A stretch of 64,000 nt of DNA, taken from contig JAFUAT010000003.1 of the NCBI GenBank assembly GCA_017460625.1, forward strand, positions 222-64,221, given 5' to 3'. Both the position numbers and the translations under genes were made by a program. This stretch comes from Candidatus Saccharimonadota bacterium (lineage in GTDB: Bacteria > Patescibacteriota > Saccharimonadia > Saccharimonadales > Saccharimonadaceae). Positions 1 through 7,044 of the stretch are shown here, piece by piece (within the stretch, counting starts at the first letter, position 1; every line of letters begins with the position of its first letter). Below the pieces are notes generated by a model, which made no database searches, was not told the DNA's origin, and saw nothing but the letters and a program-made list of their open reading frames with translations.

Positions 1-129
1 CATGTACTACTACTCCGGTAGCTTATATTCCGGCAGCTACGACTATCGGGGCCTCGGGTACTCGGTACGGTGTATCCGTACTAGCTAGTAGGCATTTCTT
101 GCTTGCTCTGAGAGCTCCGGCTCTCTCCG
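1..129 (+). repeat. DGR variable repeat (VR) plus IMH region
   Basis: Aligns without gaps to the reverse complement of 2346-2474 with 12 mismatches: 11 at TR adenines and one G(TR)/A(VR). Confidence 0.95.
2..88 (+). CDS. 3' end of DGR target protein (C-type lectin-like, FISUMP/major-paralogous-domain style C-terminus), partial
   Basis: Frame 2 reads MYYYSGSLYSGSYDYRGLGYSVRCIRTS* (TAG 86-88, second TAG 89-91). The GxSVRC ending is typical of DGR CLec targets. Confidence 0.88.
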   Translation: MYYYSGSLYSGSYDYRGLGYSVRCIRTS

Positions 130-149
130 TTCCTCCACCCGAGCAAAAA

Positions 150-171
150 GCCGCGGCTCGTAAGCCGCGGC
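150..171. promoter_or_regulatory. GC-rich hairpin downstream of VR (DGR cis-acting stem-loop; could also be a minus-strand terminator)
   Basis: gccgcggct-cgta-agccgcggc, a 9-bp perfect stem flanked by A-runs, absent from the TR copy. Confidence 0.7.
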
Positions 172-202
172 GAAAAACCATTTAAATTTTGAAGATATTA
201 CT

Positions 203-1159
203 ATGACAGATAATGATAAAAATATACCAAAAAATCTAAGTAAGAGTGCTGTACGAGACGCAGTTAATGAAAAACGTATTTCGCGGGGGCGTGGTCGGAC
301 AGATGCTGAAAAGAAAGCAAACTATAGTGCTTATGAAAAACGAAAGAAACTTGTCTTTGAGATAGAGAAGAAGAATAAGCAGTATTTAGTACTGTTTCTT
401 GCGTCGGATGGGAAACTTGATGAGAATGGCCGTGGTGGTATTTTTGACGACAAGAACTACTATATTATGGGCGGCAATTCGGCAGTGGTGTATGTTTCTG
501 AAATTGGACCACGGATTGGTAGAACACCAGTACTTAAACCTGATACGGATAATTCTCAAGTTAAATTTAGGACTGGTCTTGCGGGTATCAAGGGGCTAAA
601 TAAGTTTACGGCAGCGCTTAAGGGTATTAATATCGAGCGTGTAGAAACAAAAAGTGGAGATGAGATAGCGTATTTCAAACTACCACAAGAGTTTACTAAG
701 GACGAAATTGATACAATGATGAAGCAACAGAAAGTAACACGCGACGAAGCTAATGCGTTAGTTTATTCTAGGGTACTTCATCCGAGTTTACATAAACCGA
801 TAATCGAATTAAGAACATTGTTGATTCATAAAATTAAGAATACGGTTCCTGAATACCGTGTAGCACTGGGAAACGAAATTGTTGGGTTGGTGTTGGAGCT
901 AAAGGACGAATATATTATGATGGTACGTGAAGCTATGAATGAGCGTGAGTTGCTTCTCAAAATGCAGATTACGGTGGATAAAATTTGCGATAGAATTGGG
1001 ATGATGATGGATTTGCAACTTTGGGATGTATTGTTTTGTATCAGGGCGGGAAGTCAAGCGGCGAGAATACAACGAGAGATTAGTGCATTGATTAATAAAT
1101 ATGATGCGACATTAAAAAAGAAAGAGAAAGAAAAGAATGAAGCTAACTGCAAAAAATGA
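203..1159 (+). CDS. avd: DGR accessory protein: C-terminal Avd-like four-helix bundle with an N-terminal MutS-domain-I-like region
   Basis: Lies between VR and RT. aa ~194-300 follow the Avd pattern (PEYRVALGNEI...LLLKMQITVDKI...LQLWD...IQREISALI); aa ~58-150 resemble MutS domain I (YLVLF..YYIMGGNSA..LAGIKGLNKFTAAL). Confidence 0.72.
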   Translation: MTDNDKNIPKNLSKSAVRDAVNEKRISRGRGRTDAEKKANYSAYEKRKKLVFEIEKKNKQYLVLFLASDGKLDENGRGGIFDDKNYYIMGGNSAVVYVSEIGPRIGRTPVLKPDTDNSQVKFRTGLAGIKGLNKFTAALKGINIERVETKSGDEIAYFKLPQEFTKDEIDTMMKQQKVTRDEANALVYSRVLHPSLHKPIIELRTLLIHKIKNTVPEYRVALGNEIVGLVLELKDEYIMMVREAMNERELLLKMQITVDKICDRIGMMMDLQLWDVLFCIRAGSQAARIQREISALINKYDATLKKKEKEKNEANCKK

Positions 1160-2303
1160 AGATAGTGATGATAAAAAATGGTTGGAGAATTATTGGCACA
1201 GGTTGATGTATGAGTTATACATCTCATATCTTTATGCTAGACGTGGTGGAAAGAGGGGGACCTTTGATGAGCATAAATTTGAAGTTTTTGATTTTATTCA
1301 TCTATATAGTTTGATGGAAGCCATTAAAGATAAAAAATATTATCCGTCGAGGGGGACGGCACATATTATTTTTAACCCGGTAATCAGAGAGATTTTTGCG
1401 GCGGCTTTTAGGGATAGGGTGGTGCATCACTGGATATATATGTTGATATATGATTGGTGGGATAAACAATTTATCTTTGATTCTTATTCCTGTAGAGAGG
1501 GGAAAGGGACTTCTCTTGGGGTGTTAAGGTTGCAAGAGCAGATTGTGGAAGCTCAAAAGGAGTATAATGAACGGGTGTGGGTAATAAAACTAGATATTAG
1601 GGGGTATTTTATGAGTATTAATCGACAACTTTTGTACAAGCGGGCGGTTTGGGGATTAAACCAGCAGTTCAAGGGCTGCTATGGAATAACATATGAGTTA
1701 GCGAAGTTTTGTTTACATGAAATAATATTTGATGATCCGGTGAAAGGGGCGAAGAAGAAAGGATGGCCACAGGACTGGCGGGAACTACCAAGGACGAAAA
1801 GTCTGATTTTTCAGTTACCAGGTATAGGGATAGTGATTGGAAACTTGACCTCGCAACTTCTTTCCAATATTTATTTGGATCAACTTGATAAGTATGTAAC
1901 ACGGTCGTTGGGATGGAAATACTACGGAAGGTATGTGGATGATTTTTATTTTATTGTGCCGGAAAGTATGAAAAAGAAAGCGATTGATGATATTGCTGCT
2001 ATCGAGAGATTTTTGAAGCGGTTAGGATTGACGCTTCATCCAGATAAAAGAAGTGTTCAGCCAGCGGAAAGGGGGACGGCGTTTCTTGGGGCGGTGATAT
2101 ATCCTACGGTAATTCATCCAGGCAAAAGACTGAAGAAAAACGCGAGAAAGGCGTTTCGTGATTTTGCGAATGGGGAGGGTTCCATTGAGACGGTGGTGTC
2201 TTATATTGGGCACATGAAATACATGAAACATCATAAGTTTTTGTCATCTTTATGTGAAGAAGTGGGTTTACCGAAAAGTTTTTGGATGCAATATGAAAAA
2301 TGA
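1137..2303 (+). CDS. DGR reverse transcriptase
   Basis: FRDRVVHH, SYSCREGKG, KLDIRGYFMSI, IGNLTSQLLSNIYLDQLD (DGR-type GxxxSQ), RYVDD, LHPDK; no maturase or endonuclease domain. Confidence 0.96.
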   Translation: MKLTAKNEDSDDKKWLENYWHRLMYELYISYLYARRGGKRGTFDEHKFEVFDFIHLYSLMEAIKDKKYYPSRGTAHIIFNPVIREIFAAAFRDRVVHHWIYMLIYDWWDKQFIFDSYSCREGKGTSLGVLRLQEQIVEAQKEYNERVWVIKLDIRGYFMSINRQLLYKRAVWGLNQQFKGCYGITYELAKFCLHEIIFDDPVKGAKKKGWPQDWRELPRTKSLIFQLPGIGIVIGNLTSQLLSNIYLDQLDKYVTRSLGWKYYGRYVDDFYFIVPESMKKKAIDDIAAIERFLKRLGLTLHPDKRSVQPAERGTAFLGAVIYPTVIHPGKRLKKNARKAFRDFANGEGSIETVVSYIGHMKYMKHHKFLSSLCEEVGLPKSFWMQYEK

Positions 2304-2304
2304 T

Positions 2305-2333
2305 AAAGGGTAGGTTTTGCCTACCCTTTCTTT
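2305..2333. terminator. Probable bidirectional intrinsic terminator between the RT mRNA and the antisense TR RNA
   Basis: aaagggtagg-ttttg-cctacccttt, a 10-bp stem with T-rich tails in both directions. Confidence 0.7.
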
Positions 2334-2345
2334 AAAGGTGGAATG

Positions 2346-2580
2346 CGGAGAGAGCCGGAGCTCTCAGAGCAAGCAAGAAATGCCTACTAGCTAGCACGGA
2401 TACACCGTACCGAGTTCCCGTTGTTCCGATTGTTGTTGTTGCCGGAATATAAGCTACCGGAGTTGTAGTTCATGTTGTAACGATTCGTACTATTGTTTGC
2501 GGTAGAAGACCACCAGTTCCCGTTCGAGCCGACATTGTTCGGCGAGCCATTGTTGTAGTTCCCACTATAGACGGGGGAGA
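2346..2580 (-). repeat. DGR template repeat (TR), inverted relative to VR and RT; its upstream boundary cannot be fixed in this window
   Basis: Minus strand reads PVYSGNYNNGSPNNVGSNGNWWSSTANNSTNRYNMNYNSGSLYSGNNNNRNNGNSVRCIRAS* with 20 AAC/AAT codons; 2346-2474 matches the VR. Confidence 0.94.
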
Positions 2581-2889
2581 AAGCAGAAACAAGCTTATTT
2601 CTACTTTAACGTGCTGGGAGGAAGCACAACTACGAAATTATGAGGCTATGAAACTGTAATGATAGCAGAATATAACTTGGACTACATACAAAACAGCTAA
2701 CAATCTACAACAGGCAAGGAACAACTTGCAGAATATCTGTAATTGCCATTTGTGAAATGGGTGTTCCTGACCTCCACCTTTTTTGCAGTTTTTTGGCAAG
2801 ATTGGCTATGCCAGTGTCTTCCTTGAAACTGGGGCTTTGCCCTATGATGTATATTATAAATCGGATTACTGGTTAGTTGGAGTGCGGAT

Positions 2890-2969
2890 TGACTAATTTA
2901 AAGTCTGGGCCTGACTTTTTTAAAGCTGAGAGCTGACTTTTTTAAAGTCTTGGCTTGACTAATTTAAAG
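2890..2969 (+). repeat. Four iteron-like direct repeats TGACT(AAT/TTT)TTAAAG with an exact 22-bp period
   Basis: Copies start at 2890, 2912, 2934 and 2956; each is partly palindromic (GACT..AGTC). Confidence 0.9.
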
Positions 2970-2983
2970 TGCTAGAGTATAAT
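2955..2983 (+). promoter_or_regulatory. Sigma70-type promoter of the ATPase gene
   Basis: TTGACT (2955-2960), 17 bp, TATAAT (2978-2983); ATG 7 nt further on. Confidence 0.8.
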
Positions 2984-2990
2984 ATGGGAT

Positions 2991-4202
2991 ATGTACAAGA
3001 GAGAAATAGAACAGAGAATTAGGCAAATTTCAGATACCTTTAAGGTGCTAGTGGTTACTGGGCCACGGCAGGTTGGCAAGACTACGTTGCTTGAATCAAT
3101 GATGCCAAAAAATATGACAAAAATTTCTTTGGACGATGAGACGCTTCGCACTGAAGCTAAAGAAAATCCGCAGTTCTTTTTGAATACCTATAAGGCCCCG
3201 CTTTTTATAGACGAAGTGCAATATGCGCCGGAGCTTTTACCTTATATCAAAATGCGAGTGGACGCATCTAATGAAAAAAGTCAATATTGGCTTTCGGGCT
3301 CGCAAGCTTTTAATTTGATGGAAGGGGTTAGTGAATCGCTTGCTGGAAGAGCTGGCATTGTAGAGATGAATAGTTTTACATATCGGGAGCTGTCGCGACT
3401 CTTGGACAAAACTGCGGTTTTTGATCCATCACAAATAAAAGAATCATCGCCGATTCTTACTGATGAAGTTTTTGAACGTATTTTTGTCGGTGGAATGCCT
3501 GAATTATATAATACCCCGGAAATATCGCGGAATGATTTCTTTGACTCGTATATAAATACATATATTCAGCGGGATGTACGCCAGGTTAAAAATGTAGGGA
3601 GTCTGGAAGATTTTCGTCGATTTATGAAGGACATTGCTCTTCGTAATGGTAAGCCACTCAATTATTCTGATATAGCCGCGGAGATTGGCGTTTCTTCTGT
3701 GACGATTAAAACCTGGGTTTCTATACTGATTACTTCAGGTATTATCGTTTTGCTGGAGCCTTTTTATACGAAGAAATTAAAACGTTTGACGCATATGCCG
3801 GAAATTATCTTTATGGATTCCGGATTGGCTTGTTTTCTTGCTGGTTTTGAAACGGTGTTTGGGCTACAATCTAGTGAATATGCCGGGAGTTTTCTTGAAG
3901 CTTATGTAATATCGGAGCTAGTTAAGGGATACCGGAATAATGGGTTACAAACGAATTTTACTTATATTCGGAATAAAGAGACTGAAGAAATAGATTTACT
4001 CATTGAAAGAGACCTTGTTTTGTATCCTTTTGAGATTAAAAAGACATCCAACCCTAAGCCTGAGATGTTGAAGAATTTTCAGATGCTTGATAATGTTGAT
4101 TCAAAGGTTGGTGTTGGCGGGTTGATTTGTCTTTATGACAAAATGATGCCGCTTGGTGAAAAGAAATTTGTAATACCTATTTCTAGTGTTATTGCTGGGT
4201 GA
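2991..4202 (+). CDS. AAA+ ATPase with DUF4143-type C-terminus (COG1373-like; wHTH plus PD-(D/E)xK-like tail)
   Basis: GPRQVGKTT Walker A, FIDEVQ Walker B, LSGSQ, SLAGR, FMDSGLA, EIDLLIE..PFEIK. Confidence 0.88.
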   Translation: MYKREIEQRIRQISDTFKVLVVTGPRQVGKTTLLESMMPKNMTKISLDDETLRTEAKENPQFFLNTYKAPLFIDEVQYAPELLPYIKMRVDASNEKSQYWLSGSQAFNLMEGVSESLAGRAGIVEMNSFTYRELSRLLDKTAVFDPSQIKESSPILTDEVFERIFVGGMPELYNTPEISRNDFFDSYINTYIQRDVRQVKNVGSLEDFRRFMKDIALRNGKPLNYSDIAAEIGVSSVTIKTWVSILITSGIIVLLEPFYTKKLKRLTHMPEIIFMDSGLACFLAGFETVFGLQSSEYAGSFLEAYVISELVKGYRNNGLQTNFTYIRNKETEEIDLLIERDLVLYPFEIKKTSNPKPEMLKNFQMLDNVDSKVGVGGLICLYDKMMPLGEKKFVIPISSVIAG

Positions 4203-4626
4203 GCTTGTGGCCGCGGCGGGCGCGACTTGCCCAAGTGTCGGCAAGTTCGTTTCCTTTTGTGCCGACGTGGCCGCGGGTCCAGATGAGCTTGGTGTCACTT
4301 CTATAATATAAGTCGTAGAGTTTTTGGACGATGTCGAGATTTTTGATGGGGCCGGATTTTTTGGTCCAATTGTTTCTTTTCCAGGAAGGGGCCCACTTGG
4401 TGACAACATTAATCCAGAATTCGGAATCGGTATGGATTTCACATTCTTCATCGCTTGCGTATTCGATGGCGTTTATCAAAGCGATGCCTTCCATGCGGAT
4501 GTTGGTGGAATCCTTTTCGCTACCGATGCGGACGGGTCTAAGATCGTCACCAATTTGTTCGATAACTGCCCAGCCACCTGGGCCAGGGTTTGGGTCGGCG
4601 CTACCATCTGTCCATAAAATCTTCAT
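4189..4626 (-). CDS. rnhA: Ribonuclease HI
   Basis: WTDGSADPNPGPGGW, TNIRME, TDSEF, KNLD, WTRGHVG..GNELAD. Confidence 0.95.
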   Translation of the reverse strand: MKILWTDGSADPNPGPGGWAVIEQIGDDLRPVRIGSEKDSTNIRMEGIALINAIEYASDEECEIHTDSEFWINVVTKWAPSWKRNNWTKKSGPIKNLDIVQKLYDLYYRSDTKLIWTRGHVGTKGNELADTWASRARRGHKLTQQ

Positions 4627-4673
4627 AATCTTATTGTAACATAAACTATGCCTATCTGTGGTATAATGGGATT

Positions 4674-5951
4674 ATGAAATTATCCGAGGAATTAATTTAT
4701 CGAGGCTTTAAGGCAGAGACTACCATTAAGGAGCCGACAGATTTAGATACAAGAGAGTCTAAAAAGTTCTACTGGGGGGCGGACCCTTCGGCGGACTCTT
4801 TGACGATTGGAAATTTGGCGGCACTGATGATGTGTGCATGTTTTGTTCGTCATGGGTATGAACCGGTACTTCTGGTTGGCGGTGCGACAGGGCAGATTGG
4901 TGATCCGAAGGAAAATGGAGAACGAGATTTAAAACCACTTGAAGAAGTAGAGCACAACAAAGAGTGTATCCGAGAGCAAGTTGAGAGAGTGATTAAAAAT
5001 GCTGTTACTTCGGACGGTCTCGAAACGGCATCGTCTAGTCACTCTAAAATTACAATGGTAGACAATCTAGATTGGTTTTCTAAGATTGGGTTTTTGGAAT
5101 TTTTGAGAGAAATTGGTAAGAATTTTTCGATGACGCAGCTGCTTGATAGACAATTCGTACAGAATCGGATTGGCGATGGTGGATCTGGGATTTCTTATGC
5201 TGAATTTTCTTATACTTTGATTCAGGGATACGACTTTTTACATCTTTACCAGGAACACGGAGTGAGTTTGCAACTTTGTGGGGCGGATCAGTATGGTAAC
5301 TGCACATCGGGAATACACTTAATCAAGAGACTTGAAAACGCGGATGCGGATGTTTGGAGTACGCCGCTAATTATTGATCCGGTGACGGGAAGGAAATTTG
5401 GCAAGTCGGAAGGAAATGCGGTATGGTTAGCTAGCTCGGATAATGGTTCGGGAAACTACACTTCGATTTTTGACTTTTACCAGTTTTGGCTAAATCAGCC
5501 GGATGAAAGCGCCCAGCACCTTTTGAAGATTTACACTTTGCTTGCCCCAGAAGAAATTGAGAGTATTTTAGAAAAACATCGGGAACATCCAGAAGAGCGA
5601 ATAGCACAAAAAGCTTTGGCGCGTGGTGCGACTCAGGTGGTACACGGAGCGGGAAATGCGGAAGCAATAGAAAATTTGTGTGGGACTTTGTTTAATCGAG
5701 AAACGGATTTTAGTGAGTTTTCGGAAGATGAACTGACGGAATTTGCAGCGTATTTGCCAGTGGTGGCTAAGGGGACGGCGATGGTTGATATTTTGGTTAA
5801 TTCTGGACTGGCTGAGTCAAAGAAAAAAGCAAGGGAGTTTATTTCTCAAGGTGCTGTATCTGTAAATGGAACAAAAGTGACGGAAGAAATCGCGATTAAT
5901 CAGACGGCCATTATTAAAAAAGGTAAAAATAAATTTGTAATTGTGAAATAA
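4674..5951 (+). CDS. tyrS: Tyrosine-tRNA ligase
   Basis: YWGADPSADSLTIGN, YTLIQGYDF, GADQYGN, KFGKSEG, C-terminal S4 domain. Confidence 0.96.
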   Translation: MKLSEELIYRGFKAETTIKEPTDLDTRESKKFYWGADPSADSLTIGNLAALMMCACFVRHGYEPVLLVGGATGQIGDPKENGERDLKPLEEVEHNKECIREQVERVIKNAVTSDGLETASSSHSKITMVDNLDWFSKIGFLEFLREIGKNFSMTQLLDRQFVQNRIGDGGSGISYAEFSYTLIQGYDFLHLYQEHGVSLQLCGADQYGNCTSGIHLIKRLENADADVWSTPLIIDPVTGRKFGKSEGNAVWLASSDNGSGNYTSIFDFYQFWLNQPDESAQHLLKIYTLLAPEEIESILEKHREHPEERIAQKALARGATQVVHGAGNAEAIENLCGTLFNRETDFSEFSEDELTEFAAYLPVVAKGTAMVDILVNSGLAESKKKAREFISQGAVSVNGTKVTEEIAINQTAIIKKGKNKFVIVK

Positions 5952-5952
5952 G

Positions 5953-7044
5953 ATGTATCTAGCGGTACTTGGGCGACAAAGTGAAATATCAATAGCGGAA
6001 CTGGATGCGCTTTTTCGTGAAGTCAAAAAAGTGACTTCACAGATTGCGGTGTTTGATGCGGATGATTTGCCGGACATTAGACGGCTTGGTGGGTCTTTGA
6101 AATTGGCAGAGAAAATTAGCGAGCCGGTGCTGGATTTTTTGGCGGGGTTGGCGGATGGAAAAATCACTTTTGGGATAAGTGATTATACGCATGGTGCGAC
6201 TTTTAAAACCGTCAACCTTGAAGCAATGAAATTAAAGAAGATTCTAACTCGGCATGGAAGGTCGGTAAGGATTGTGACGGGAAAAGGAGCGACACTTTCT
6301 ACGGCGACATCGCTTCATAATGGGTTGAGTGGAAAAAACCCGAAAAAAGTCGAGCTGATTAAACTGGATAATGATTGGTACAGAGTGATTGGTGTGCAGG
6401 ATATAGATGCCTATAGCCGGAGAGACCAAGCAAGACCATCTAGAGATGCAAAAGTTGGAATGTTGCCACCGAAATTGGCGCAGATCTTGATAAACTTATG
6501 TGGACCCTTGAAAAAGGGAGCTGCAGTGCTGGACCCGTTTTGTGGAACAGGGGTGGTTCTACAGGAAGCGATGCTAATGGGGTACCGTGCTTACGGGACT
6601 GATGTTAGTGAAAGGATGATAGAGTATAGTAAAAAGAATTTGGAATGGCTGAGTGATTCTAAAAGTACTTTTTTGCTATCGCAGGGTGATGCTACTTCTT
6701 TTCAATGGCAGGAATCAATAGATGCGGTGGCATGCGAAGGATATCTTGGCGTGCCGATGTCTAATCCGCCGACGGAAATGAAATTAAAAGAACAGAAACA
6801 GATTTGTACAGAAATAATACTAGGATTTTTGAAAAATTTAGGGGCTCAAATAAAATCTGGTACGCCCGTAGTAATTGCCGCTCCGGCTTGGCTTCAGACT
6901 AATGGAAAATATTCTAGATTACTTATTATTGACGAAATCTCAAATATGGGGTATAATGTAGATAATAGATCGCGCGAGGGGCTTCTTTATCATAGAGAAG
7001 GTCAGGTTGTTGCGAGAGATATAATAATATTAAGGAAAAAATAA
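5953..7044 (+). CDS. SAM-dependent RNA methyltransferase (Trm11/UPF0020-like)
   Basis: GMLPPKLAQILINL, VLDPFCGTGVVLQEA, GTDVS, QGDAT. Confidence 0.75.
   Translation: MYLAVLGRQSEISIAELDALFREVKKVTSQIAVFDADDLPDIRRLGGSLKLAEKISEPVLDFLAGLADGKITFGISDYTHGATFKTVNLEAMKLKKILTRHGRSVRIVTGKGATLSTATSLHNGLSGKNPKKVELIKLDNDWYRVIGVQDIDAYSRRDQARPSRDAKVGMLPPKLAQILINLCGPLKKGAAVLDPFCGTGVVLQEAMLMGYRAYGTDVSERMIEYSKKNLEWLSDSKSTFLLSQGDATSFQWQESIDAVACEGYLGVPMSNPPTEMKLKEQKQICTEIILGFLKNLGAQIKSGTPVVIAAPAWLQTNGKYSRLLIIDEISNMGYNVDNRSREGLLYHREGQVVARDIIILRKK

Follow-up and report, generated by a model that had tools for sequence, protein, structure and literature searches.

What binds the four short repeats that lie between a DGR and an ATPase-nuclease gene, and which of the two neighbours do they serve? 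The window, meaning the whole 64,000-nucleotide stretch of DNA that was analysed, opens inside the DGR, a retroelement that generates mutations. Its VR (1-129) and 2346-2474 are 91% complementary, so the TR is on the minus strand. The DGR includes an Avd-like gene (203-1159) and an RT gene (1137-2303), and a hairpin terminator is at 2305-2329. Downstream of the repeats are the gene for a 403-aa ATPase, then rnhA, tyrS and housekeeping genes.

The repeats are four exact copies of TGACT(AAT/TTT)TTAAAG, all on the + strand: box 1 at 2890-2903 (TGACTAATTTAAAG), box 2 at 2912-2925 (TGACTTTTTTAAAG), box 3 at 2934-2947 (TGACTTTTTTAAAG) and box 4 at 2956-2969 (TGACTAATTTAAAG), each starting 22 bp past the one before it. 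The box is bipartite, with an invariant TGACT, three A/T bases and TTAAAG. The stretch 2880-2990 reads gat-TGACTAATTTAAAG-tctgggcc-TGACTTTTTTAAAG-ctgagagc-TGACTTTTTTAAAG-tcttggct-TGACTAATTTAAAG-tgctagag-TATAAT-atgggat-ATG. Four 22-bp-phased repeats had been reported in a preliminary description of this DNA, and they were confirmed by reading the sequence, by Tandem Repeats Finder (TRF; 2890-2970, period 22, 3.7 copies) and by a pattern search with TGACTWWTTTAAAG, which returned 4 exact matches in the 64-kb window, every one in the array. Shuffled sequences gave a mean of 0.01 matches, and 0/100 shuffles reached 4. Across the 712-kb assembly the only exact copies of the box are the array's four. 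An Rfam search of 1-5000 gave no match over 2853-2990, the sole sub-threshold match lying elsewhere. The same description placed the repeats at exactly two helical turns and on one face of the DNA. Both statements had to be revised. Because 22 bp is about 2.1 turns and relatives use 22 or 23 bp, the sites spiral slowly around the helix.

A consensus scan found TTGACT (2955-2960), 17 nt and TATAAT (2978-2983, + strand), with 11/12 consensus matches. Box 4 and the T preceding it form the -35 hexamer, so box 4 contains the -35 as previously proposed. A tandem-promoter reading of the array was rejected because a -10 follows only the last box. The ATPase ATG is at 2991, and homologues are all conserved from their first residues (MY[KDN]RE...). 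Since the -10 ends 7 nt before this conserved start, the ATPase mRNA is probably leaderless or near-leaderless. The -10-to-ATG gap is 9 nt in L080 and 6-7 nt in most Saccharibacteria-type homologues (L015, L068, L069, L072, L076, L078, L119). In the latter, as in the window (2978-2993), no Shine-Dalgarno sequence is present, which implies that these genes are probably also expressed from leaderless mRNAs; L127 has the same arrangement. Firmicutes homologues, unlike the Saccharibacteria-type loci, have a Shine-Dalgarno leader.

The gene (2991-4202, + strand) encodes an AAA_14/DUF4143 (COG1373) ATPase-nuclease, the proposed binder of the boxes. The protein matches AAA_14 (2.3e-28) and DUF4143 (1.2e-34) in Pfam and, over its full length (residues 1-401), the PADLOC candidate PDC-S01 (PDLC04790, 1.3e-99). 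GPRQVGKT (Walker A), IDEVQ (Walker B) and the nuclease residues E303, D335, E348 and K350 are invariant in 15 sequences. An AlphaFold2 (AF2) model (pLDDT 90.7, pTM 0.91) arranges the protein as an AAA+ core, a winged helix and a nuclease domain containing these four residues. The predicted winged helix-turn-helix (wHTH), assigned from AF2 secondary structure to residues 205-274 (nt 3603-3812, + strand), consists of helices 205-217, 225-232 and 236-248 and wing strands 252-255 and 271-274. Helix 236-248 (nt 3696-3734, + strand) is the predicted recognition helix. The wHTH-like region mentioned in the preliminary description is thus modelled with confidence as a wHTH that separates the AAA+ domain from the nuclease domain. 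Foldseek neighbours of the model were generic only, namely PAB2304, RuvB, Orc1/Cdc6 and MuB, which are AAA+ proteins with winged helices, and the Can2 nuclease. A sequence search of solved structures found no homologue of the ATPase, and an NCBIfam search found no family for it. Its ORF and the convergent rnhA ORF share 14 nt at their 3' ends (4189-4202), so the inserted cassette is tightly packed.

COG1373 is listed as a PD-(D/E)XK nuclease family of unknown function (PMC3424549), and the AAA+ plus PD-(D/E)XK architecture has been described for the PDC-S01 candidate (PMC12988326; PMC3424549). PDC-S01 is reported to rank fourth in frequency among defence candidates in prokaryotes (PMC12988326) and to be the single locus found most often in rumen genomes (PMC13356809). 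In the literature its role in phage defence has candidate status only (PMC12988326; bioRxiv 10.1101/2024.01.29.577857). None of the papers covered by a literature search dealt with operators, regulation or DNA sequence specificity in the COG1373/PDC-S01 family, and a search with the box sequence returned only an unrelated C. elegans paper.

Public collections were searched for two boxes 7-10 nt apart, a query with 24 specified bases and a negligible chance expectation. Paired boxes were present in 53 other contigs (7 genome, 43 metagenome and 3 viral) whose hosts, from at least three phyla, include Saccharibacteria, human-gut Firmicutes and high-GC Opitutia. These arrays contain 2-12 boxes at a phase of 22 or 23 bp, and in 20/53 loci the array adjoins the start of a homologous ATPase gene, which is intact or degraded. 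For a test from the protein side, 12 homologues (59-84% identity) were chosen by protein identity and their upstream DNA was then read. All 12 have 2-5 phased boxes, the last of which is the -35, then 17 nt and a TATAAT-type -10; the last box is the -35 in every forward array of the homologues. With boxes detected by pattern, the information content was 1.0-2 bits at box positions and 0.1-0.8 bit in the spacers. Selection acts on the boxes so detected, not on the spacers. No gene other than the ATPase was found to be consistently linked to the boxes. As far as sequence comparison can tell, the array and promoter are a conserved module that travels across bacterial phyla with the ATPase-nuclease gene, and the distribution shows that all three pass from one genome to another as a single cassette. 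A search of viral contigs with the ATPase profile found one distant locus (L071), which is without boxes.

In other COG1373 subfamilies the same promoter position is occupied by different repeats (L010, L011, L013, L068 gene 2, L078 gene 2, L111, L126, L127, L128). Among these distant subfamilies are GAACAATTT palindromes (L068 gene 2, L069 gene 2), 33-bp direct repeats (L078 gene 2, L126), 24-39-bp direct repeats (L011, L013, L111, L128) and a palindrome (L127). Since the repeats differ and the position is the same, promoter-embedded, subfamily-specific repeats look like a trait of the whole COG1373 family. Two or three COG1373 genes stand side by side in L068 and L078. The closest ATPase homologues (82% and 77%, at L068:2-10628 and L069:7460-10645) are interleaved with large Fib_succ_major-domain proteins, the C-termini of which resemble DGR-target lectin ends (...FSVRC...).

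The 3' half of the box was compared with residues 235-242 of the cognate ATPase. Where the half-site is TTT(A/G)AAG, as in this window, other Saccharibacteria, a Firmicutes clade and Opitutia, these residues are S-S/V-[V/A/P]-T-x-x-[T/S/A/N/K/R]-W. They are S-S-[N/K]-T-I-K-E-W with TTTGAAG (L072, L080), [S/A]-V-N-T-I-[K/R]-[D/E]-W with TTT(G/T)CA(G/A), which comprises GCAG, GCAA and TCAA (L073, L082, L114), and [S/T]-D-K-T-I-x-[A/T]-W with TTTCGGAA (CGGAA; L116, L117). Residues 236, 237 and 241 of the recognition helix change clade by clade with the box 3' half. Within one helix class the first 3' position can be A or G (L069, L119). In a maximum-likelihood tree of the ATPase each of the four box/helix classes is one clade, and only about 3 independent changes are involved. 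With so few evolutionary events the co-variation of box and recognition helix is statistically not strong; it is suggestive and no proof.

These results suggest that the array is an autoregulatory operator of the ATPase gene's own promoter and that the ATPase binds it, a reading we consider likely. The winged helix of the ATPase is the candidate reader because no other gene is consistently linked to the boxes and the box is unique in the genome. Absence of the box elsewhere in the 712-kb genome also makes a dedicated unlinked host regulator unlikely. The preliminary description had named the adjacent ATPase as candidate binder and possible autoregulator. The first proposal gains from the wHTH model, the array upstream of every homologue examined and the suggestive box/helix co-variation, the second from the position of box 4 as the -35, which recurs in the homologues' forward arrays. 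Comparatively, the ATPase is therefore a well supported candidate for both roles. A promoter with 11/12 consensus matches fits repression better than activation.

If the ATPase is the binder, one protomer would occupy each box through its winged helix. On direct repeats at 22-23 bp the protomers would line up head to tail, as AAA+ domains do when they oligomerise, and a spacing of 2.1-2.2 turns would wind them in a slow spiral. Occupancy of box 4 would cover the -35 of the near-consensus promoter and repress the gene, and nucleotide state may tune the cooperativity of binding. Such autorepression would let a nuclease that may be toxic limit its own level and keep it low. The cassette of this genome landed in a variable slot between the DGR and rnhA. 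For the PDC-S01 family the array supplies a conserved candidate DNA target, TGACT-N3-TTAAAG at 22-23 bp phase. The predicted reading head is winged-helix residues 236-241, and AAAG, GAAG, GCAG and CGGAA are natural specificity variants. Tests of binding, autoregulation and specificity swaps can now be designed directly for an abundant defence candidate.

Several features go beyond simple autoregulation. Opitutia ATPases are only 29% identical, yet their AT-rich box is identical, inverted, and ends 3-4 nt before the ATG (L017:2588-2652, L019, L023, L052, L062). For an operator, this degree of conservation is out of the ordinary. Cassettes are often orphaned or truncated, as in L016, L018, L020/L050 and numerous Firmicutes loci linked to tatD. 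The Opitutia locus L020/L050 has the array plus just the first ~25 codons of the ATPase gene. Downstream of tatD there are arrays of 2-12 boxes with no ATPase gene (L021:2253-2518, L025, L031, L035, L036, L039, L045, L054, L057-L060, L063), and the cognate ATPase was found nowhere in the genome that carries the 12-copy orphan array. At tatD-linked Firmicutes loci such as L031, ORF-free DNA of ~700 bp replaces the ATPase directly after the last box. Simple insertion or deletion of the ATPase at the tatD locus was rejected, since this DNA in the ATPase-free allele is unrelated. In phage-type tRNA clusters of freshwater viral and metagenome contigs, two-box arrays (TGACTAATTTAAAG-N8-TGACTAATTTAAAG) exactly fill a tRNA-gene gap on the strand opposite to the tRNAs (L044:828-863, L066:2687-2722, L067:549-584, L033:10865-10900, L048:12723-12758). 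Decoy, scar and promoter are candidate meanings of these arrays. The Opitutia conservation, the orphan arrays and the tRNA-cluster arrays together suggest that the box may have a life beyond autoregulation.

On the DGR side of the array, a putative TR-RNA -10 (TATAAT, 2853-2858, - strand) lies outside the module, 31 nt from box 1. The divergent TR promoter, whose upstream region box 1 had been said to abut, is plausible because the -10 and ATAC are conserved in the closest DGR relative, G021 (TAAAAT-ATAC versus TATAAT-ATAC here), which has no boxes. The RT and Avd of G021 are 71% and 55% identical to those of this DGR, and its TR, leader blocks and TR -10 are kept. Between TR and rnhA it carries a PemK/MazF-type toxin gene (L085:3300-3698), and the slot after the DGR of G022 holds a Zeta-toxin gene (L104:3393-4040). 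The DGR flank therefore seems to be a hot spot for accessory genes of the toxin/defence kind. Since related DGRs have toxin genes in the slot and no array, the cassette is a lineage-specific insertion in a variable slot. A DGR RT of this type occurs in 55/121 related genomes, and a close homologue of this ATPase was found in none of the same-genus genomes.

The coordinates of all DUF4143 matches (61 in 37 genomes) were then set against those of all RT matches. Seven ATPase genes lie <3 kb from an RT (G000 C14 and C3, G092:C2, G013:C63, G077:C9 (L111), G088:C6 and G076:C16), against ~0.9 expected under random placement by our own arithmetic; three of the seven were checked directly, plus L111. 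The RT-adjacent ATPases stand in either orientation and come from no fewer than four subfamilies, each having promoter repeats of its own. They include those at both DGRs of this genome, the second of which is on contig C3 of G000 (L126:428-5125). We wondered whether COG1373/PDC-S01 ATPase-nucleases might be sequence-specific DNA-docking machines that assemble head to tail on phased arrays and, in Saccharibacteria, are more than chance neighbours of DGRs. They might work with them, perhaps through control of TR transcription or as the source of a nuclease or ATPase step in cDNA integration. We regard this as unlikely. Toxin genes of TA type occupy the same slot, so an accessory-island effect is the simplest reading of the adjacency and is probably the correct one. 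The recurrent, undocumented DGR/COG1373 neighbourhood in Saccharibacteria is nevertheless flagged here.

One alternative to an autoregulatory operator is that the array-bound ATPase also controls the divergent TR-RNA promoter, coupling the state of the ATPase to DGR mutagenesis. Box 1 is about 44-57 nt upstream of the inferred TR start, beside its weak -35, and the excess of COG1373 ATPases of several subfamilies near DGR RTs in the genus (7/61) points the same way. In addition, a 73%-identical ATPase with a 3-box array directly follows the inverted TR of a different DGR (L076/L077; RT 49% and Avd 25% identical to the one here). However, an RT or Avd homologue is present in 0/53 array loci and in only 1/12 of the protein-first loci, and the array is present in 0/29 sampled same-genus DGR RT loci. 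The closest DGR keeps the TR -10, and the slot is filled by the PemK toxin gene there and by the Zeta toxin in another relative. Furthermore, box and TR promoter are separated by 31 nt here and by about 113 nt in L076, and the orientation of the ATPase relative to the DGR varies. Control of both promoters is therefore unlikely. The preliminary description had proposed that the array gates DGR template transcription, adding that the same array and ATPase unlinked to any DGR would speak for autoregulation only. Both occur widely without a DGR, the outcome that the description had named as a refutation, and with the 0/53 and 0/29 counts gating is not supported. The array is not a DGR component, and for the DGR field the result is mostly negative.

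Alternatively, the boxes could be bound by a host regulator other than the ATPase, such as a response regulator of OmpR/PhoB or LytTR type. Sites of these families are direct repeats at 21-22 bp, about two turns, upstream of or overlapping the -35, and the array has this typical form. Arrays that survive as orphans without the ATPase would also be explained. In contrast, the box is kept with the ATPase gene in Saccharibacteria, Firmicutes and Opitutia and with no other consistent gene, its sequence tracks the ATPase clades, and the array occurs once only in this reduced genome. We consider a host regulator quite unlikely as the binder.

Tandem repeats of 22-23 bp beside a gene for a wHTH protein also resemble plasmid iterons, which raises the possibility of a replication element, or else of a mobile-cassette end or attachment site on which the nuclease domain acts. 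The cassette is clearly horizontally mobile, and the ATPase is truncated or replaced exactly at the array border in L016, L018, L020/L050 and in L029 versus L031. The setting, however, is chromosomal, between the DGR and rnhA-tyrS, and no Rep, integrase or transposase gene adjoins the array. The array fails as a replication origin, and iteron identity was rejected, because a Rep gene, a DnaA box within 2300-6900 and a turn in the cumulative GC skew, which is monotonic, are all absent. No second array or inverted end was found flanking the ATPase gene, and the last box is always placed as the -35. Either form of this explanation is very unlikely. A protein-independent element, either phased A/T-tract curved DNA boosting the promoter or a neutral minisatellite, would account for the A/T run repeated in phase in each box and for copy numbers from 2 to 12, but it is highly improbable, as the G/C-containing TGACT and the terminal G are conserved equally with the A/T run, the spacers are free to drift, and whole clades have switched the 3' half to GCAG or CGGAA with phasing retained.

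An autoregulatory operator bound by the ATPase can be compared with several known systems. Described DGR accessory classes are Avd, HRDC, MSL and CH1 (PMC5758913). Like these, the ATPase gene lies beside the TR/RT core, and does so recurrently in the genus; unlike them, it is not conserved among related DGRs, is mostly DGR-free and falls outside the described classes (PMC5758913). The array-adjacent gene matches PDC-S01 (COG1373, AAA_14 + DUF4143) over its full length and with the same AAA+/PD-(D/E)XK architecture.

With OmpR/PhoB and LytTR sites the array shares direct repeats at about two turns that overlap the -35 or lie directly against it. Response-regulator sites are members of host regulons and as a rule activate weak promoters, whereas here the promoter is near-consensus and the site is genome-unique and inherited with the adjacent gene. 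DnaA binds the DnaA boxes of oriC and of the dnaA promoter, and ORB elements are bound by Orc1/Cdc6. Both proteins (2qby and 1l8q in Foldseek) are, like the ATPase, AAA+ ATPases with a helix-turn-helix or winged-helix domain, and head-to-tail oligomers on same-orientation sites and repression of the own gene would be expected by analogy. They differ in that the ATPase has an internal wHTH with a PD-(D/E)XK nuclease after it, the sequence of the box is unrelated, the spacing of sites here is a regular 22-23 bp, and the folds are modestly similar (TM 0.2-0.4). Iterons whose initiator genes are autoregulated, such as the 22-bp iterons of R6K and lactococcal theta plasmids, are likewise tandem direct repeats of about 22 bp upstream of a gene for a winged-helix protein, with one site overlapping the promoter. 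Unlike iterons, the array has no replicon context, Rep-family protein, DnaA boxes or AT-rich unwinding region, and its candidate binder is an AAA+/nuclease fusion. By analogy, then, the module would work like an autoregulatory array of the iteron or DnaA-box type, in which a winged-helix protein acts on tandem same-orientation sites at its own promoter.
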